Program-made: the position numbers and the translations under genes
Notes under the pieces: generated by a model
What the model saw: the letters and a program-made list of their open reading frames with translations, nothing else
Told to the model about the DNA's origin: nothing
Database searches by the model: none
From: a plasmid
Strand: one strand, 5' to 3'
DNA length: 64,000 nucleotides
Sequence record: NZ_CP029448.1
In this document: in pieces, positions 1,205 through 42,482 of the stretch
How positions within the stretch are numbered: position 1 is the first letter of the stretch
Layout of the letters: the number at the start of each line of letters is the position of its first letter

Positions 1205-2428
1205 ATGGGATTCAGATTCAGGAAGTCGATAAGCATTATTCCCGGCGTCAGGATAAACCTGAGCAATGGAGCCCCCAGCCTGAGTGTTGGACCCCGGGGG
1301 GCGTCACTGTCTTTTGGGAAGCGCGGGACCTATGCCAATCTGGGGTTGCCGGGCACTGGACTGAGTTATCGGACCCGTATTGACCGGATAGTACGGGAGC
1401 GACAGAACAACAGAGCTCAGGCTAATCCGGGACTGAGGGAAGAGCTGGAGCAGGAAGTGGAAAGTCTGATGTCCGCTATAACGGCCATTTCCAGTATTCA
1501 TGAGCTTTCCCCTTCACCTGTGGGAGGGAACACATGGGCATCGCTCGAATCACATTATCTTGAGCTCCACCAGAGGACGTTCGACCGGCCCGCGCCTGTT
1601 CGTCCTGCCAAACCTGAATACAGTCCTCTCCCGTCCGCACCAGACGAACGTAGCGGTCGTGGTTTTCTGGGGGGATGGTTCGAAACCGATGCGGCTCGCA
1701 CCGAACGACAGAATGAGAACCAGCGACAGTGGCAACAGCAAGTAGCGGACGTTGAACGCGAAAACACACTGCTTAAACAACGGTATGAGAAACAACGTGT
1801 CGCCTGGGCTGAACAGTATGCAAACTGGCAGTATGAAGCTCAGGAACATGAAAAAAACTCTTCTCTCACTGCTGACGTTGCACGCGAGCAGTTCCGATCG
1901 GATGCCCGTTACTTTGAAGATTGCCTGGCAGAGGTGCTCTCACAAACGGAATGGCCGCGTGAAACGCTTGTGACTTTTGAAGTCAGGCCTGACGAATCAA
2001 TGGTCTGGCTTGATGTTGATTTACCTGAGATTGAGGATATGCCTGATAAGGTATATGTCGTCAATGCAAAGGGAACGGATATCACTGAAAAAACGATGAC
2101 ACAGAAAGCGGTCCGGGAGAGTTATGCAAGACACGTCCACGGTTGCCTGATGCGATTAGCTGCCATCGTATTTCAGACGCTTCCGTTTGAACACGCCGTG
2201 CTTTCCGGCTTTACTCAGCGGATCAGCAAACAAACGGGTTACCTTGAAGATGAGTACATTCTTTCCTGCAGGATAGACCGCCATCATATGGAAAAAATAA
2301 ACTACACGAACCTTAAAGATGTGGACCCTATCACGGTGCTGAGTGTTCAGGCGTTGGTCCGAAAAATGAGCGCAACTTTCCTGTTTCAGGCTATTGACCC
2401 TATTATGATAACTGCAGGCACCAGCTGA
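1205..2428 (+). CDS. DUF4236-domain protein
   Basis: N-terminus MGFRFRKSISIIPGVRINLSNGAPSLSVGPRGASLSFGKRGT is the characteristic DUF4236 repeat. 407 aa. Confidence 0.5.
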   Translation: MGFRFRKSISIIPGVRINLSNGAPSLSVGPRGASLSFGKRGTYANLGLPGTGLSYRTRIDRIVRERQNNRAQANPGLREELEQEVESLMSAITAISSIHELSPSPVGGNTWASLESHYLELHQRTFDRPAPVRPAKPEYSPLPSAPDERSGRGFLGGWFETDAARTERQNENQRQWQQQVADVERENTLLKQRYEKQRVAWAEQYANWQYEAQEHEKNSSLTADVAREQFRSDARYFEDCLAEVLSQTEWPRETLVTFEVRPDESMVWLDVDLPEIEDMPDKVYVVNAKGTDITEKTMTQKAVRESYARHVHGCLMRLAAIVFQTLPFEHAVLSGFTQRISKQTGYLEDEYILSCRIDRHHMEKINYTNLKDVDPITVLSVQALVRKMSATFLFQAIDPIMITAGTS

Positions 2429-2430
2429 CT

Positions 2431-2904
2431 ATGCAACTAAATACCCGACAGGAACGAATTTATACTCTGGCGAGCTTACTGGGTACGGGAAAACCCGTTT
2501 CTGCGGCAAAAATCATCAGCATTCTTGACTGTTCTGAACCTACCCTCAGTCGTGCGCTGAAGGAGCTTCGGGAGTCCTATGCAGCTGAAATAAAATACAG
2601 TAAAGCCGGTCATTCCTATCAGTTAGTTAGTCCCGGGCAGCTCGATAAAAAAACTTTGCGCCGAATGAATGAAGCACTCACTCAAAACGCTGAACAGAAA
2701 GCGCAGGATATTTCGACGAAAGTGGTGCTGGATAAAGATCTGAAGACGGCAGTCTCTTTATCAATCCGACGCCGGGTACTCCGGAAAATAGACAAACTGG
2801 CCGAACTTACCGGCACGTCCCGAAGTGAGGCGGTAGAGACTCTCGCTGAAATGAAGGTCGAGGACTTTATTAAGGTAGTTCAGTTGAAAAACAAGCCGGA
2901 ATAA
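2431..2904 (+). CDS. HTH-domain hypothetical regulator
   Basis: 157-aa ORF starting 3 bp after the previous stop (operon-like). N-terminal winged-HTH-like segment. Confidence 0.4.
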   Translation: MQLNTRQERIYTLASLLGTGKPVSAAKIISILDCSEPTLSRALKELRESYAAEIKYSKAGHSYQLVSPGQLDKKTLRRMNEALTQNAEQKAQDISTKVVLDKDLKTAVSLSIRRRVLRKIDKLAELTGTSRSEAVETLAEMKVEDFIKVVQLKNKPE

Positions 2905-3061
2905 CAGCATTCCAGGGGTACCGACAGAAAGGGCCCCTTTTTACTTGTAGGTAAAGTCGCCCACACGTGCCTTACAGTCAGAGATATTCTCCTTCCGTAT
3001 TTCCCATTTTGCCGTTGGACAAAAGAACGATGGCCGATCACCTATACTGTTTCTACAGGTT

Positions 3062-3643
3062 TTACCTAGCGGAGCAACTTCCGTAAATCACATTCCGGTG
3101 TAGGTAGATGTCTGCTACGGATTTTCCACCCAATTTCTTCAGCACGCGATTTATATGGTCCTGAGAAGACCGCTTTGTGATTGACAATACAGTGGCTATG
3201 TCTTCATCTGAACGACCACAAAGAACCAGACGCGCTACCGTAAATTCCCTGTCAGTCAGCCGTACAGTATTTGCTGCAGGCAGATTTGCACTGCCAGATA
3301 TAGTTTTCAACACGGTATAGGTAAAAATATTTAACCGTGTCGTGATGTCGATAAACTGTGTGTCATCATTTCTGACACTCTCTATCGCATGTTGCAGTAA
3401 AAAGCAGAAACGCGCACCTGAACGGTAGAGTTTACTCAGAAATTGGACGTTTTCCTCATGGAGAGGACGTTCAATGAAGTAAATATTATCCTTGCATATC
3501 ACATGGTTGGAGAGGTGGTTCACCGATAGTCGCGAAGCAGCTATCTCATGCTTGCAAAGAAGTAACTCAATTCCTACGTACAGAAACTGGTTGTCCGTAA
3601 TGACGTAAATCATCCTGTCTATCGCTCCAGGTATCCTACCCAC
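3062..3643 (-). CDS. LuxR-family transcriptional regulator
   Basis: C-terminal GerE/LuxR HTH (LTDREFTVARLVLCGRSDEDIATVLSITKRSSQDHINRVLKKLG). Confidence 0.55.
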   Translation of the reverse strand: MGRIPGAIDRMIYVITDNQFLYVGIELLLCKHEIAASRLSVNHLSNHVICKDNIYFIERPLHEENVQFLSKLYRSGARFCFLLQHAIESVRNDDTQFIDITTRLNIFTYTVLKTISGSANLPAANTVRLTDREFTVARLVLCGRSDEDIATVLSITKRSSQDHINRVLKKLGGKSVADIYLHRNVIYGSCSAR

Positions 3644-3734: not shown

Positions 3735-3998
3735 ATGAAGAAGCGTTTTTCCGACGAACAGATCATCAGTATTCTCCGCGAAGCCGAAGCTGGGGTACCC
3801 GCCCGTGAACTCTGCCGCAAGCATGCCATTTCCGATGCCACGTTTTACACCTGGCGTAAGAAGTATGGCGGTATGGAGGTGCCTGAAGTTAAGCGCCTGA
3901 AGTCGCTTGAGGAAGAGAACACCAGACTCAAGAAGCTGCTTGCCGAAGCCATGCTGGATAAAGAGGCGCTTCAGGTGGCTCTTGGGCGAAAGTACTGA
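3735..3998 (+). CDS. IS3-family transposase OrfA
   Basis: [30 protein letters not shown]... has an HTH and a leucine zipper. Confidence 0.85.
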
Positions 3999-4021
3999 CG
4001 ACAGACCAGAAGCGGGAAGCC

Positions 4022-4855
4022 GTGATGTTGATGTGTGATGCGACCGGTCTGTCGCAACGTCGTGCCTGCAGGCTTACAGGTTTATCCCTGTCGACCTGCC
4101 GCTATGAGGCTCACCGTCCGGCTGCTGATGCGCATTTATCAGGGCGCATCACTGAGCTGGCACTGGAGCGCAGGCGTTTTGGCTACCGTCGTATTTGGCA
4201 GTTGCTGCGCCGTGAAGGGCTTCATGTTAATCATAAGCGCGTGTACCGGCTTTATCACCTCAGTGGCCTGGGCGTAAAACGCAGAAGACGTCGTAAAGGG
4301 CTGGCAACAGAACGTCTGCCGCTGCTCCGTCCGGCGGCGCCCAATCTGACCTGGTCGATGGATTTCGTCATGGACGCACTTTCCACCGGTCGCAGGATCA
4401 AGTGTCTTACCTGCGTCGATGATTTCACAAAGGAATGCCTGACGGTCACTGTTGCCTTTGGGATTTCAGGCGTTCAGGTCACGCGTATTCTGGACAGCAT
4501 TGCACTGTTTCGAGGCTATCCGGCGACGATAAGAACTGACCAGGGGCCGGAGTTCACTTGCCGTGCACTGGATCAATGGGCCTTTGAGCATGGTGTTGAG
4601 TTGCGCTTAATCCAGCCGGGCAAGCCAACGCAGAACGGATTTATTGAGAGCTTTAACGGACGATTTCGCGATGAATGTTTGAATGAGCACTGGTTCAGCG
4701 ATATCGTTCATGCCAGGAAAATTATTAATGACTGGCGGCAGGATTATAACGAATGCCGCCCGCACTCCACGCTGAATTATCAGACACCGTCTGAATTTGC
4801 AGCGGGCTGGAGAAAGGGTCATTCTGAGAATGAAGATTCCGACGTTACTAACTGA
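4022..4855 (+). CDS. IS3-family transposase OrfB (DDE integrase domain; expressed by frameshift from orfA)
   Basis: Integrase-core motifs are present: [23 protein letters not shown]. Confidence 0.85.
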
Positions 4856-8749: not shown

Positions 8750-9810
8750 TCGATGAGTTGCCGCCCTACCTTGAAAACGCGAGCACTACTGTCATCGGCG
8801 GCGGTACGCTGGCTACCGTGAGCACCTACACACTCAGCTGCCTGATGAGCGCCGCTCTGGAGTTACCGCGTTGCTGCATTGTGATTGCCAACCTATCCGG
8901 CAGCTATGTGGCTCAGACCAAGGCAATTGCCGAAGCAATCTCTAACCTCCAGCAAGAAGCCAGTCGCCAAGCGAGCACCATCACCCCCGTGCAGTTGGCG
9001 GGTACCTGTTCATCCCTAGCGCCTCTCCGCCTTGATGCTGGCAGATTCAGTCTGGCCTCGCGGTTCGACCTACCGAAATATCGGCGGTTACATTGTCCCC
9101 AGAGCTTCAGACCCGGCTGTTACCGGCCACGCCTGTCTGGGTAGGGAACGAGTGGTGGAACAGTCGGTTCCGTCGGGCGTTAACCTGCGGAACAGAAACC
9201 CATGCGACTTTCAGGTCGCACTGCCGAAATAATACTGGTTTCCCTTCTTGGTCTGGTGCATTTCCGGGTCGCGCTTGCCGTCCTTGTTCTTGGTCGAACT
9301 GGGCGCATTGATCAGCGTTGCATCGACGATGGTGCCCTGGCGCAGCGACAGGCCGCGGTCGCCCAGAGCCATTGATGACAGCGAGGATGCCGGCCGCCAG
9401 CTCGTGTTTCTCCAGCAAGCGGCGGAAGTTGAGAATGGTGGTTTCGTCGGGGATGCGCTCCAGGTTCAGCCCGGCAAACTGGCGCAGGATCGTGGTTTCG
9501 TACAGCGCTTCCTCCATCGCTGGATCGCTGTAGCCGAACCAGTTCTGCAGCAGATGCACACGCAGCATCGCCATCAACGGGTAGGCCGGACGGCCACCTT
9601 CACCCTTCGGATAATGTGGCTCGATCAAAGCAATCAAGCCCTTCCACGGCACCACCCGATCCATCTCGATCAGGAACAACTCCTTGCGGGTTTGCTTGCG
9701 CTTGCCAGCGTACTCGGCGTCGGCGAAGGTCATCTGCTTCATCGGGAAACTCGGTGGGTGGAATCCGGGTATTTTGCCAAAATCTGGAAGTCTTCTTCAG
9801 AGTTTCCCTA
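8750..9810 (-). mobile_element. degenerate IS5-family (ISKpn26-like) element, copy 1
   Basis: Transposase N-terminus MKQMTFADAEYAGKRKQTRKELFLIEMDRVVPWKGLIALIEPHYPKGEGGRPAYPLMAMLRVHLLQNWFGYSDPAMEEALYETTILRQFAGL on the minus strand. It is frameshifted after ILAVING and continues in another frame ([38 protein letters not shown]). Distal part is decayed, and the 8750 boundary is approximate. Confidence 0.5.
9107..9742 (-). pseudogene. IS5-family transposase, frameshifted
   Basis: See previous entry. First about 125 aa are intact. Confidence 0.6.
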
Positions 9811-37911: not shown

Positions 37912-39183
37912 TCAGAAACGGGCAACCGGCAGCTCCTTCCAGCGGGTGGTATATGCCGGTGACAGCATCTCCCGTTTCATCTGCCAGTCCGGCGCAATAC
38001 CCCGTCCGGCAAACCAGACTTTCCCGAGTCCGGAATGATTAATACCGTCGAGCACCTTCATCAGCGCATCGCTGTGCGGCCGTGGCTGCACGTCATCGAA
38101 CAGATTCAGCTGTGCAACGCCGTTCGGGCTGAAATCATTGAGCATTATCCCCGCTTTTGCGTAGCGGTGGCCATCGAGCCAGATCCTGTCCAGAGACCTG
38201 ACCGCTGCCGCTATAATGTCCCGGGTGTCACGGGTAGGGGTGTTCAGTTTCTCAGTGGCCACGTTACCGTAGTACGGTTCATTAACCGCAAAAGGGGAGG
38301 TTTTGATGAAGATGCTGATATGCCGGCAGTACTGCCGCTCACCTCGCAACTTTTCTGCTGCGCGCTCGGCGTACTGGCAGACGGCCTGGCGCATTTCTTC
38401 ATAGGTGGTGATCCGCTGCCCGAAGCTGCGACTGCAGACAATCTGCTGTTTCGGCGGCGGCGCTTCCTCCAGTGAAATGCAACTCTCGCCGTTCAGCTCA
38501 CGTACCGTGCGCTCCAGCACTACGTTGAAGTTTTTGCGGATAAACGCGGGGTTCGTCAGCGACAGCTGCAGGGCGGTGGTGATCCCCATAACGTGCAGCT
38601 TTTTCGCTATCCGGTTCCCCACGCCCCATATTTCTTCCACCGGCTGCAGGCTGAGTAATTTTGCCGTCCTGCGTGGATTATCGGGCGACAGCGCCAGCAC
38701 CCCCCTGAATTGTGGCCATTCCTTTGACGCCCACTGCGCCGATTTGGCCAGTGTTTTTGTGGCGCCGCAGCCGACACCGATCGTCAGTCCGGTTCCACTG
38801 AGAACGTGCCCACGCAACTGCCTGCCAAAATCCTCCAGATCCATACATTGGCCAATTCCCCGGGCATCCAGGAAACATTCGTCTATCGAGTATTGTTCGA
38901 CGCGGGGAGACAGCTCCTCCAGCAGGGCGACCACGCGGTTACTCAGGCTAGCGTAGAGCTCGTAATTGCTGGAAAAAACGTACAGTTTTTCAGGAAACTG
39001 CGCCTCTTTGAGCTGGAACCAGGGGGTTCCCATCTTTATACCCAGCCGTTTGGCTTCAGCACTCCGGGCAATAACGCAGCCATCGTTGTTACTGAGAACG
39101 ACGACCGGTTTTCCGCGCAAATCCGGCCTGAAAACCCTCTCGCAACTGGCGTAGAAGGAGTTGACGTCGGCCAGGGCGAACAT
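37912..39183 (-). CDS. umuC: error-prone Y-family DNA polymerase V catalytic subunit (UmuC/ImpB/MucB family)
   Basis: [41 protein letters not shown]..., 423 aa. Confidence 0.9.
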
Positions 39184-39608
39184 CAGTCTGTCCCCCGGGT
39201 TTTATGAATGAAGGCCGTCACCACACCGAAAATTTGCAGCGTTTCCGGATCCGGGTACAGGGAAGGGAAGTCCGGGTTCATCGCCTGCAAGGCCGGCCGT
39301 GGCGTCAGAAGCAGGCGTTTTACCGTAAATTCACCCTCAATTTCCGCGATAACAATATCCCCGTGCCGCGGCTGTTCTGCTTTATCCACGACCATCAGAT
39401 CGCCGGAATAGAGGCCAATATCAGTCATTGAGTTGCCAATCGCCCTGACAAAATAGGTGGAGTGGCGCCGGTGAATGCAGTACTCATTCAGATCCAGTTC
39501 AGACTCAGTGTAGTCCGCAGCCGGTGACGGAAAACCCGCAGGGCATCGCTCTGTGAACAAAGGAATTTTTACTATGCTGGCTTCTGATACTGCAGGAATG
39601 AACTTCAT
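39183..39608 (-). CDS. umuD: UmuD/ImpA-family self-cleaving SOS protein
   Basis: 141 aa. Ala-Gly cleavage region ([12 protein letters not shown]). Ser/Lys peptidase motifs GNSM...FTVKRL. Overlaps the umuC start. Confidence 0.85.
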
Positions 39609-39630
39609 CGTATTTTCCCCTCGCTTGAAA

Positions 39631-39646
39631 CTGTATATATATACAG
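39631..39646. promoter_or_regulatory. LexA box (SOS operator) of the umuDC-like operon
   Basis: Perfect palindrome CTGTATATATATACAG (CTGT-N8-ACAG), 22 nt upstream of the umuD ATG with a GAGGGG RBS. Confidence 0.75.
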
Positions 39647-39647
39647 T

Positions 39648-41550
39648 GTGCGCCGGGAGACCGGTAAAGATCAAGGGGTGAAAGTCCCCGACCATTGAAG
39701 GACCAGCAATCCACAGGGTCCCTGAGTCATGCGTTGTATACCGTGAGGTATGGGGCGAAGCGTTGACAGGGGTGTTGACAGGCCAGCCATTGAGCCACGA
39801 AATGTATATTAAATTCCCGGGTGCCGACGTTGTACTGTTTACGGAAGGCAACATCATAGGGTGCGTTACTGCGAGTGCCATATGGACCCGGCGGGGTCTG
39901 AGACCCTGGCATGTCAATACGATCTTTACGCGGGAACCGGGAGATCTCCCCTCTGACCATCTGCCAGTGCCGGAGATGGCCCGCACCGGGAAGGCGAGGA
40001 GCCGAAGCCGGTGATGTACGGAGAGGAGAAGTCGGACTTGCTCATAGTAGCTGCGAAGCTGGCGAACAATCCGCAAGGAGCGGAGTCAGTGGAGCGAAGG
40101 AGCGGGGCCAAGGGAAACGCGGAACAGCCACACATGCGCCGGACGCAGAGCCGGGAAAGTATGTCACAGAGGCTGTCACGCGTGCGGGAAGCTGCGAAGC
40201 AGCGGAAGAAAGAACGGTTTACCGCATTGTTCCACCTCCTGACAGCAGAGGCACTGGAGAACGCATTCCTCTCCCTGAGCAGGAAAGCGGCTGCCGGAGT
40301 TGATGGTGTCAGGTGGAAGGACTACGCCGAAAACCTGAAGGTCAACATAGCAGATCTGCACCGGAGGCTTCATCAGGGCAGTTACAGGGCTCAGCCCGGC
40401 AGGCGGCACTACATCCCGAAAGCGGATGGAAAACAGCGCCCGCTCGGCATCGCCTCACTGGAGGACAAAATCGTCCAGTATGCGCTGGTTAAGATCCTGA
40501 ATGCAGTCTACGAAAATGACTTTATGGGGTTTTCATACGGGTTCAGACCCGGGCGAAGCCAGCACAATGCGCTGGACGCACTGGCCACAGGGCTGGTTCG
40601 GACCAATGTAAACTGGGTACTGGATGCCGATATCAGTCAGTTCTTCGACAAGGTAAGCCATGAATGGCTAATCAGGTTCATAGAACACAGAATCGGCGAC
40701 CAGAGGGTAATCAGGCTCATACGAAAGTGGCTCACAGCCGGGACCTCAGAGGAAGGAGAATGGCGGGCATCGGAGGAAGGCACCCCACAGGGTGCGGTTA
40801 TCTCGCCGCTGCTGGCAAACATCTACCTCCACTATGTCTTCGATCTGTGGGCGCATCAGTGGCGACGCCGCCATGCCACAGGCAATGTGGTCATGGTCAG
40901 ATACGCAGATGACATAGTCATCGGGTTCGACAAGCGAATCGACGCTCAATGCTTTCGTATAGCCATGCAGCGCAGACTGAAGGAGTTCGGACTCACGGTA
41001 CATCCGAAGAAAACCCGACTGATGGAGTTCGGCCGCTTCGCAGCCGAAAACCGCGCCAGCAGGGGAAAAGGTAAACCAGAAACGTTCAACTTCCTCGGGT
41101 TCACGCATATCAGTGGGAAAGATCGTAGTGGCAGGTTCATGCTGATACGAAAGACACGCCGGGACAGGATGACGGCGACACTGAAAGCGATCAAGGACGG
41201 ACTACGAAAGCGCTGGCATTACTCAATCCCCGAACAGGGAAAATGGCTCAGGAGAGTGGTTCAGGGATACCTGAACTACCACTCAGTCCCGGGCAACTAT
41301 CCCATGATGCGGAAGTTCAGGATATACGTAACAGACCTCTGGCGACGGGCGCTGAGGCGCAGGAGCCAGCAGGATGATACGACATGGACGAAAGCAAACA
41401 GACTGGCAGCCGTATGGCTGCCGAAGGTTCGGGTTCTGCATCCATGGCCTGTGGAGCGGTTCACCGCCAGACACCCAAGGCAGGAGCCCGGTGCGTGAAT
41501 AGCGCACGCCGGGATCTGTGCGGGGGGTACCCGGTAACGGGTATCCCTAC
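39648..41550 (+). mobile_element. bacterial group II intron (about 1.9 kb) with an intron-encoded reverse transcriptase/maturase
   Basis: 5' GTGCGCC at 39648. Domain V-like hairpin GAGCCCGGTGCGTGAATAGCGCACGCCGGGATC at about 41482-41514. Domain VI-like stem with a bulged A just after. RT ORF in between. The 3' boundary is approximate. Confidence 0.65.
40134..41498 (+). CDS. group II intron reverse transcriptase/maturase
   Basis: RT domains 0-7 with YADD (MVRYADDIVIGF), then a maturase (X) domain. Start ambiguous (40011, 40134 or 40161). Confidence 0.85.
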   Translation: MRRTQSRESMSQRLSRVREAAKQRKKERFTALFHLLTAEALENAFLSLSRKAAAGVDGVRWKDYAENLKVNIADLHRRLHQGSYRAQPGRRHYIPKADGKQRPLGIASLEDKIVQYALVKILNAVYENDFMGFSYGFRPGRSQHNALDALATGLVRTNVNWVLDADISQFFDKVSHEWLIRFIEHRIGDQRVIRLIRKWLTAGTSEEGEWRASEEGTPQGAVISPLLANIYLHYVFDLWAHQWRRRHATGNVVMVRYADDIVIGFDKRIDAQCFRIAMQRRLKEFGLTVHPKKTRLMEFGRFAAENRASRGKGKPETFNFLGFTHISGKDRSGRFMLIRKTRRDRMTATLKAIKDGLRKRWHYSIPEQGKWLRRVVQGYLNYHSVPGNYPMMRKFRIYVTDLWRRALRRRSQQDDTTWTKANRLAAVWLPKVRVLHPWPVERFTARHPRQEPGA

Positions 41551-42482
41551 CGCGACATTATTTTGCGGAGGCCGTTTTTTTTCAAGTCATCTTGTTGCCG
41601 TTGTCTGTAACCATTTGCTGTTCCTGCAAAAACAGGGAAATTTCAGAAGGATCACTGCCAGCCCGGAGAATCGTTATCTAATAAAATGTAATATACTGAA
41701 GTACAGTGTATTTATTCTGAGTGGAGTGATTATGAATACGGGTTTAAGGCAGGTTCTGCGATATGCAGGCGTCCCGGTTGACGCCGCTGAACCGGTGCGC
41801 CGGCAATTCGGTAGCCGCCTGATTTTAATCGTGACGGTTGCTCTTCTTCCGCTGTTGATTGTTGACGTCCCTCAGTGGATATTTGTGCTCTCCCAGATTA
41901 TCTGGGGAAGCGGTATGTATATTGGTATCTCCGTGGCCAGTGATAAACCAGATCGCCGGTAAGCTCAGAACGAGAGGTCTCCCGGATCGCCTGGTGACGG
42001 GCAACTGATAAACCGGCGCCGTGCCATCAACACCGGATAAGGACGTCACCGGCTTGTCGTTGCCGCCGACTCCGCTTCACCCGGCCCCATCCCTCCGGTC
42101 TGTGGCCTGATTCCTGCGTCTGTCGCGTTGCGACATTTGCTTCCGCTTTTCTCCCTGTGGTCGAAATACGGGTTAGACAAACCTTTTATTCAACCTCTGC
42201 ATCGCGACGGGTAGTGCTGTGCCTTCACTTTACCCGGCCGCTGCAGATGCAAGGGTTCGCTGACGCCGCCATCCTCGCCCGGTCGCAGGTTACTGATGAT
42301 GCTCGCTGTTCTTCCCGTCGTTTTCTCGCTCAGGTTTCGCTCGAAAACCGTCCAGACCAGCTTCGTGCTTTATCTGCGCTGCGGCCTCCGGTGTCGCCCC
42401 TGCGTCTTCCGCTTTCCGCCGGGCTGTCGTGTCGGCACGGCACAACCCGGTGCCGCAATCTTATGAACCTGTGGAGGTTGCT

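Follow-up and report, generated by a model that had tools for sequence, protein, structure and literature searches.

Group II introns select their targets by pairing between RNA and DNA, and a few lineages home to motifs of a general kind, for example terminators or attC sites. In this study, we analyzed a 64,000-nt stretch of plasmid DNA (sequence record NZ_CP029448.1; the whole stretch is called the window, and coordinates are window positions unless another record is named), in which a group II intron of the Kl.pn.I5 family lies beside the LexA operator of a umuDC-type Pol V operon. The best explanation of the observations, which we regard as probable, is that the Kl.pn.I5-family lineage retrohomes specifically into LexA operators and that the insertion in the window separates umuDC from its predicted promoter.

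RmInt1 and other endonuclease-less introns resemble the window intron because they lack an endonuclease domain and use exon-binding sites 1 and 2 (EBS1 and EBS2) together with distal 5′-exon positions. Priming at the replication fork is established for RmInt1 and presumed for the window intron. RmInt1-type introns home into particular insertion sequences or genes, whereas the window lineage appears to home into a regulatory operator. Class C (IIC) and IIC-attC introns likewise target a generic, widespread motif (terminators or integron attC sites) and thus find many non-coding sites per genome. The window intron is unlike them in that its motif appears to be read as a sequence, EBS2 is present, the motif is a transcription-factor binding site, and its ribozyme matches Rfam model RF02005. 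IIC-attC introns affect the expression of neighboring genes depending on their orientation (PMC3001079), which is comparable to the effect proposed for the window intron. In the umuDC, mucAB, and impAB operons, as in the window, a UmuD-like S24 peptidase and a UmuC-like Y-family polymerase follow a consensus LexA box, which lies 22 nt before the start codon. Unlike them, the window umuDC allele has a 1.9-kb antisense intron between the predicted promoter and the operator with its genes.

The Kl.pn.I5 reference (pK245, K. pneumoniae; Zimmerly group II intron database) is 92.2% identical to the window intron over 1,909 nt without gaps. The open reading frame (ORF) length is the same, and the EBS1 core (ACUGU) and the EBS2 loop are unchanged. 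The pK245 copy is also inserted 1 nt past a LexA box (TACTGGTTATACATACAGT/, with the slash marking the intron boundary here and below), antisense to umuD, but its box and umuD allele differ from those of the window. The window intron is a distinct variant that has diverged by 8%; therefore, the label 'Kl.pn.I5-like' is safer. Leclercq and Cordaux (2012) reported that Kl.pn.I5 copies share a conserved homing site from −25 to +10 (PMC3522654), and the words 'LexA' and 'SOS' are absent from the text of that paper. No description of a group II intron that targets a LexA/SOS box was found in the full-text literature, from whose coverage most subscription journals are excluded. The intron is already catalogued, and its position beside umuD stands in thousands of public records as ltrA; the rule behind its placement appears to have gone unrecognized.

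The insertion site and the intron comprise the following features:

39631-39646: LexA operator core CTGTATATATATACAG, a perfect box (direct sequence reading)
39647 and 41557: 19th and 20th bases of the 20-mer AACTGTATATATATACAGT/A, which is cut by the intron
39648-41556, plus strand: complete Kl.pn.I5-family group II intron, 1,909 nt (boundaries from empty sites L001 and L002)
39681-39906, plus strand: ribozyme domains I-IV core (Rfam RF02005, group-II-D1D4-6; 180.6 bits, E = 9e-53, full-length model)
40011-41498, plus strand: intron-encoded reverse transcriptase (RT)/maturase, 495 aa (RVT_1, E = 1e-45; TIGR04416, 373.8 bits over aa 80-451)
41482-41556, plus strand: domains V and VI, with the AGC triad and a bulged A in CCCUACCGC (RF00029, full length)

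The operator core is a CTGT-N8-ACAG palindrome with an AT-rich center, and GTGCGCCGGGAGACC begins at 39648, one base (T39647) past the box. The limits of the intron are exact because intron-free plasmids define the junction. These plasmids read ...CTGTATATATATACAGT/ATTATTTTGCGG, so the intron is unambiguously 39648-41556. The two fetched empty-site records read ...AAACTGTATATATATACAGT/ATTATTTTGCGGAGG.... The ends of the intron (5′ GTGCG at 39648 and 3′ ...CCGCGAC at 41556) agree with the GUGYG/AY rule. The initial annotation had given the element as 39648-41560; its start was correct, but the empty sites place the end at 41556, and the annotated end lay four bases too far.

The RF02005 score is well above the gathering score of 49, and the TIGR04416 match, an NCBIfam equivalog for group II RT/maturases, exceeds its cutoff of 300. 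The RT/maturase ORF is located in domain IV and has its YADD active site at 40902-40913. No HNH/En endonuclease match was found in the 495-aa ORF, in which just 44 aa lie C-terminal of the TIGR04416 match, and the Pfam maturase-specific domain (GIIM) gave no match to this ORF at E = 1e-3. RF00029 scored 36.9 bits, just under its gathering score of 40 (E = 4.7e-6 in a local search). Its alignment stops exactly at the 3′ boundary set independently by the empty sites, and the domain V-VI fold (−48.3 kcal/mol) has z = −4.7 relative to shuffled sequence. The RT/maturase ORF with YADD, the domain V hairpin, and the domain VI bulged A noticed in the initial annotation are confirmed. The element has matches to the models of both domains I-IV and domains V-VI, unlike the RT-only retroelement that the initial annotation had raised as an alternative. 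Judged by these sequence features, the element is a complete mobile group II intron of the catalogued Kl.pn.I5 family.

Intron copies with 100% identity are present in other records, including a K. michiganensis chromosome, and copies in Klebsiella and E. coli phages are 99.6-99.7% identical. We searched PLSDB with a 3-kb query covering umuD, the intron, and the downstream flank (coverage of at least 80%). The occupied arrangement was found in at least 1,270 records, mostly Klebsiella IncF plasmids, and a query with the intron deleted from the junction found 267 plasmid records that span the junction in one piece; the records in these counts are not independent. Splicing and retromobility of the Kl.pn.I5 intron are indicated indirectly by about 38 independent insertion sites, described below, and by two new insertions that arose during a hospital outbreak (PMC8269217).

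To survey the lineage, relatives of the intron-encoded protein were collected from viral contigs and from genomes, with one genome for each species, and the intron ends were mapped by BLAST. Among copies with at least 88% nucleotide identity, CTG-N10-CAG plus 1 nt precedes the intron in 54 of 55 distinct 30-nt 5′ flanks. The probability of this motif occurring by chance at a fixed offset is about 2.4e-4 per site; coincidental placement is ruled out by this survey. The lone exception, L003, is located upstream of an sbmC-like gene, and GTG replaces CTG there. Clustering of the distal flanks gave 38 independent sites, whose logo, TACTGTATATAWAWACAGT/A, equals the enterobacterial LexA consensus of 20 nt, with the cut falling between bases 19 and 20. 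From −19 to +1 it reads T A C T G T A T A T A W A W A C A G T / A, also written TACTG(TA)5CAGTA, with 1.8-2.0 bits at CTG and CAG. The earlier suggestion that the operator was a selected insertion target therefore holds across the lineage.

The genes beside the boxes encode UmuD-like S24 peptidases, DinI-family proteins, a GyrI/SbmC-like protein, a cloacin/colicin-type bacteriocin, and small prophage proteins without known function. By their sequence context, the occupied boxes are operators of SOS genes. Empty alleles at three unrelated loci already carry a complete box; beyond umuD, these loci are a dinI-like prophage gene and a phrog_3893 gene. The base at +1 is A in 31 of 34 occupied sites. 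The intron was found in 219 of 5,426 complete E. coli genomes, at 45 chromosomal and 229 plasmid places. All four sampled chromosomal copies in E. coli obey the rule, and two of them are in the classic umuDC operator in the sense orientation (ACTACTGTATATAAAAACAGT/intron/ATAACTTCAGGCAGATTATTATG). Two relatives of about 70% identity, from non-enteric metagenome-assembled genomes (MAGs), are also at LexA boxes but one base further (CAGTA/), and their EBS1 register is likewise shifted by 1 nt. The targets of more distant relatives are unrelated to LexA boxes.

Several individual sites deserve mention. In the chromosomes of E. coli Ecol_AZ146 (L153) and AR_0119 (L154), the sense intron occupies locus positions 1501-3409, 21 nt before the umuD ATG, and these strains are natural material on whether splicing restores Pol V expression. 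The records of Klebsiella phage Kp4865-4 (L150) and Wanchaivirus PDP110P2 (L151) are both empty alleles, with G at +1 (CAGT/G), of otherwise occupied sites, which hints that +1 G is a poorer target. Tandem intron pairs (...CCGCGAC/GTGCGCC...) are present behind a single LexA box in L099 (2638-6455) and L110 (1103-4920). Such copies are expected if insertion leaves the 5′-exon target whole with the intron G at +1, so that the site could be hit again. In L120/L144 (3′ flank) and L143, the target is the first of two close LexA boxes (for example, ...TTACAGT/ATATATACTGTATGCATGAACAGTG), and the second box is empty.

To locate EBS1 and EBS2, we aligned domain I of relatives with different targets and looked for covariation. 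The two loops are as follows:

39804-39810, plus strand: EBS2 loop GUAUAUU (core UAUAU), pairing with the AT-rich operator center at about −13 to −9
39833-39840, plus strand: EBS1 loop U-ACUGU-UU, in which ACUGU pairs with the right half of the operator, ACAGT (−5 to −1)

The EBS1 loop covaries with the 5′ exon in at least seven relatives that have different targets:

L021: loop UACUGUG, target CACAGTA
L024: loop GUUUCC, target GGAGAC
L025: loop UUAUUCG, target CGAGTAA
L027: loop UUACUCA, target TGAGTAG
L028: loop CUGUUG, target CAACAG
L029: loop UGUCAC, target GTGACA
L040: loop UCACAA, target TTGTGG

EBS2 pairing is also found in relatives: the L024 loop AGAUGUC is a perfect complement of GACATCT, which stands at −14 to −8 of its target, and the L025 loop AAACC pairs with GGTTT. 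In the window, the flanking U39833 may pair with the +1 A. A general δ-δ′ pair between the base 5′ of EBS1 and the +1 base was considered and rejected; it fits the window (U-A) and L028 but fails in L029, L030, and L022. As a related observation, the copies in L029-L036 and L073, from uncultured alphaproteobacterial MAGs, have about 63-67% nucleotide identity, occur many times per genome, and each follow the motif (A/T)TTACGGTGAC(A/G), with which the EBS1 loop UGUCAC (target GTGACA) agrees. This is another repeated, possibly functional DNA motif that serves as a homing site.

The left half-site TACTGT (−19 to −14) takes no part in the EBS1 and EBS2 pairings, but its conservation equals that of the right half. 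As a within-molecule control, we searched the same plasmids and prophages (0.68 Mb) for ACAGT[A/G] with an AT-rich center. When CTG was present at −17 to −15, 57 sites were occupied and 60 were empty; without CTG, one was occupied and 82 were empty (Fisher p = 9e-16). The left half-site is required for occupancy. In other group II introns, reading of the distal 5′ exon (−14 to −19) by the intron-encoded protein is the standard explanation for conservation at these positions, and we infer that the left half is read in the same way here.

The genes and predicted promoters around the operator are listed below:

37912-39183, minus strand: umuC-like Y-family DNA polymerase gene, 423 aa, intact ORF (Pfam IMS, IMS_C, DUF4113)
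39183-39608, minus strand: umuD-like gene, 141 aa, S24 peptidase (Pfam Peptidase_S24, E = 3.8e-24; named umuD in plasmid records)
39617-39622, minus strand: Shine-Dalgarno sequence GAGGGG of umuD (direct sequence reading)
39625-39630, plus strand: −35 hexamer TTGAAA of a predicted divergent promoter, whose 16-nt spacer is the LexA box and whose −10 hexamer TATTAT is split (T39647 and ATTAT at 41557-41561)
41557-41585, minus strand: displaced predicted umuD promoter (−35 TTGAAA at 41585-41580, 17-nt spacer, −10 AATAAT at 41562-41557)
41733-41962, plus strand: small hypothetical ORF, 76 aa, the first gene downstream on the intron strand

The S24 peptidase gene is followed by the Y-family polymerase gene, as in a umuDC-type Pol V operon, and the two ORFs share one base (39183); records of identical plasmids give the umuC-like gene as a Y-family DNA polymerase. 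The intron is antisense to both genes. On the minus strand, umuD starts with an ATG at 39608, and 22 nt separate it from the LexA box. The initial annotation had recognized both this spacing and the perfect SOS box at 39631-39646, with the group II 5′ consensus starting one nucleotide after it; the sequence confirms all of these, and the empty site fixes the boundary at GTGCG.

In the empty site L001, a consensus scan found a sole sigma-70-like site on the umuD strand, TTGAAA-17-AATAAT, which matches the consensus at 10 of 12 positions and ends 1 nt before the box. The same site is present in the window at 41585-41557, directly beyond the 3′ end of the intron. Because the insertion point falls precisely between the operator and the predicted −10, the prediction supports displacement of both the −35 and the −10 by 1.9 kb from the operator and umuDC. 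The initial annotation had proposed that the region where a −35 element would lie is now intron sequence. The disruption of the promoter is supported by this prediction; however, the −10 would be displaced as well as the −35. Comparison with intron-free plasmids, which the annotation had proposed, thus reconstructs a predicted umuD promoter abutting the box. The alternative that the promoter lies wholly between the box and the ATG fails, as those 22 nt contain nothing but the Shine-Dalgarno sequence.

The scan also called the divergent promoter TTGAAA-16-TATTAT in the empty site L001 (3072-3099, 10 of 12 positions), and this call is gone from the scan of the window. The divergent promoter faces genes of the plasmid leading region; in the annotation of a homologous empty-site plasmid, antirestriction, Pol III theta, and ssb genes follow the 76-aa ORF. 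If this promoter exists, the operator would serve both directions and the intron would disrupt the two promoters. In the consensus scan of the window, no sigma-70-like site was created at the intron-operator junction as a replacement. On the umuD strand inside the intron there are a weak promoter candidate (39881-39853, 9 of 12 positions) and a weak terminator-like site (41422-41405). Expression of the plasmid Pol V operon is likely to be reduced or deregulated by the insertion.

The insertions are in the sense orientation at approximately two-thirds of the sites, and there the SOS gene has its Shine-Dalgarno sequence and start codon 14-23 nt past the intron. Besides the window copy, the antisense class includes the reference intron on pK245 and several more umuD sites on plasmids. 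The consensus scan called no promoter at the E. coli chromosomal umuDC, where TACTGT matches the −10 consensus at 3 of 6 positions. A custom survey of −35-like hexamers (at least 4 of 6 matches) was used instead because the consensus scan misses TACTGT as a −10 element. At 38 of 57 sites (background, 8.6%), TACTGT was preceded by such a hexamer, typically TTGATC, TTGACT, or TTGAAC, at a distance of 16-18 nt, which in most cases was exactly 17 nt. This suggests a common design, a TTGAyn-N17-TACTGT promoter in which the left half of the operator is the −10 element.

These observations can be combined into a mechanism for homing into LexA operators. The intron would always enter between the 19th and 20th bases of the 20-nt box, with EBS1 (ACUGU) pairing with the right half (ACAGT), EBS2 (UAUAU) pairing with the AT-rich center, and the intron-encoded protein probably reading the left half-site TACTGT. 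Priming would occur at the replication fork, as suggested by the endonuclease-less introns, and the 16-bp operator core survives the insertion. At sense sites, the predicted transcription start precedes the 5′ splice site of the intron by about 6-8 nt. The intron would then be transcribed first upon LexA cleavage and would be under LexA control. Because the target is nearly palindromic, the intron can also enter the opposite strand, and the window is such an antisense case. The box in the window is followed by A after CAGT on the plus strand and by T on the umuD strand, so the choice of strand fits the preference for A at +1. Antisense insertions would separate the SOS gene from its promoter; in the window, the umuD promoter would have been moved by 1.9 kb and the divergent −10 split.

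Other explanations for the association between the intron and the box were also considered. If insertion occurred wherever EBS1 and EBS2 can pair (an AT-rich center plus ACAGT/A), the insertions in LexA operators might simply be those that persist because they are harmless or well expressed. The RNA-readable part is the right half and center of the box, LexA boxes are strongly enriched among sequences of this form, and bacterial group II introns are generally located where harm is small (PMC3522654). However, in the same molecules 57 of the 117 sites with the left CTG are occupied against the single one without it, and many of the 82 empty sites lacking CTG should be equally neutral. Moreover, antisense insertions that probably damage a promoter, such as that in the window, persist, so selection is not obviously strict. 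RNA pairing with survival bias is thus unlikely to account for the pattern. The left half could alternatively be kept for the binding of LexA, if operator-bound LexA or a LexA-induced DNA shape recruits or positions the ribonucleoprotein (RNP). In favor of this, the variation among targets follows the pattern known for degenerate LexA sites, with CTG and CAG fixed and the fourth position and the center variable, and both halves are equally conserved while the RNA reads only one. However, bound LexA is expected to occlude the site from reverse splicing, and protein reading of −14 to −19 is already the standard explanation elsewhere. We consider a role of LexA in targeting to be quite improbable.

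The initial annotation had proposed that the palindromic operator was chosen as a mimic of a hairpin or terminator, in which case the intron would recognize the operator as a DNA stem-loop, as class C introns do with terminators and attC. The target is palindromic, some single-stranded targets fold weakly (the window box at −4.3 kcal/mol), and single-stranded DNA at the replication fork is the presumed substrate of endonuclease-less introns. To our knowledge, hairpin-targeting class C introns have no EBS2, whereas EBS2 is present in the window intron and covaries with the targets in its relatives. The 3′ arm of the stem is intron-binding site 1 (IBS1) itself, so the stem would compete with EBS1 pairing. 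When six targets were folded as DNA, most formed stems of 4-7 bp with loops of 8-10 nt (−0.3 to −3.5 kcal/mol), and in two of the six the best fold was other than the operator palindrome. Changes of T to G at −14 (four sites) and of A to C at −5 (one site) are never compensated on the opposite arm, and the sequence itself, the LexA consensus, is invariant beyond mere complementarity. The proposal of hairpin mimicry is very improbable on these grounds. A box beside virtually every copy would also be found if it belonged to the mobile element, as its own SOS-controlled promoter/operator, and traveled along with it. This is ruled out by the complete boxes in the intron-free alleles at three unrelated loci; in addition, the boxes differ between sites while the adjoining introns are nearly identical, and the canonical GTGCG starts immediately after the box. 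Such a cargo origin has practically no probability.

Some points weigh against homing into LexA operators with separation of umuDC from its promoter. Selection after insertion, or involvement of LexA, would leave the same pattern in the left half-site. The TA repeat in the target leaves the EBS2 register in the window ambiguous. At sense sites, the 5′ exon of about 6-8 nt covers IBS1 but not IBS2 and may not be long enough for splicing to be efficient. Clonal relationships link many of the plasmids among the occupied records, and the number of about 38 independent events rests on flank clustering. All of the promoters and start sites are consensus predictions. In addition, umuD and umuC stay intact ORFs in the intron-bearing plasmids, which is compatible with expression by read-through or from an internal antisense promoter, such as the weak candidate at 39881-39853.

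If the lineage does home into LexA operators, this would give group II introns a new targeting strategy, aimed at the sites where a global transcription factor binds, and one that guarantees sites in every gammaproteobacterial genome and in many phages and plasmids. It would place the intron under SOS control and make it a natural modifier of the SOS regulon. The predicted promoter of the error-prone polymerase operon would be split off in most sequenced examples of a very large group of Klebsiella/E. coli resistance plasmids, which bears on the share of these plasmids in stress-induced mutagenesis. The system is also a tractable test of DNA reading by an intron-encoded protein, and it may be a tool to tag or disrupt LexA operators.

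A wider reading is put forward tentatively, and we think it possible but more doubtful than the homing itself. The lineage may have evolved to use the SOS operator as its homing site, and at most sites the intron would be the first sequence transcribed; its expression and mobility would be switched on by DNA damage, prophage induction, or conjugative DNA entry, and it would gate or disconnect SOS genes depending on its orientation. If this is true, sense copies put a splicing requirement before umuDC, dinI, sbmC, colicin, and prophage genes, and antisense copies disconnect SOS genes, such as Pol V on most Klebsiella IncF plasmids with the window umuDC allele. In a more radical version, LexA itself would guide the RNP to the site.

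Copies that are 92-99% identical and have enterobacterial LexA-box flanks were also found on very short contigs (L006, L009, L010, L012, L014, L015, L016, L018, L019, and L023) of assemblies labeled Streptomyces, Actinomadura, Microbacterium, Kitasatospora, Pedobacter, Haemophilus, Flammeovirga, Arthrobacter, and Eggerthellaceae. The L023 copy adjoins a cloacin-type bacteriocin gene. These copies are most likely enterobacterial contamination of those assemblies.

Two other elements were found elsewhere in the window. A second, unrelated group II intron fragment lies on the minus strand at 9019-9221 (RF02012, D1D4-7, matched at 9167-9019 with 122.7 bits); its candidate 5′ end, GTGCGACC, is at 9221. 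Neither an RT ORF nor domains V-VI follow this fragment, which looks like a truncated 5′ remnant. An IS1222-type ribosomal frameshifting element on the plus strand at 3965-4082 (RF00383, 156.6 bits) overlaps the 5′ end of ORF 4022-4855 and indicates an IS3-family insertion sequence.

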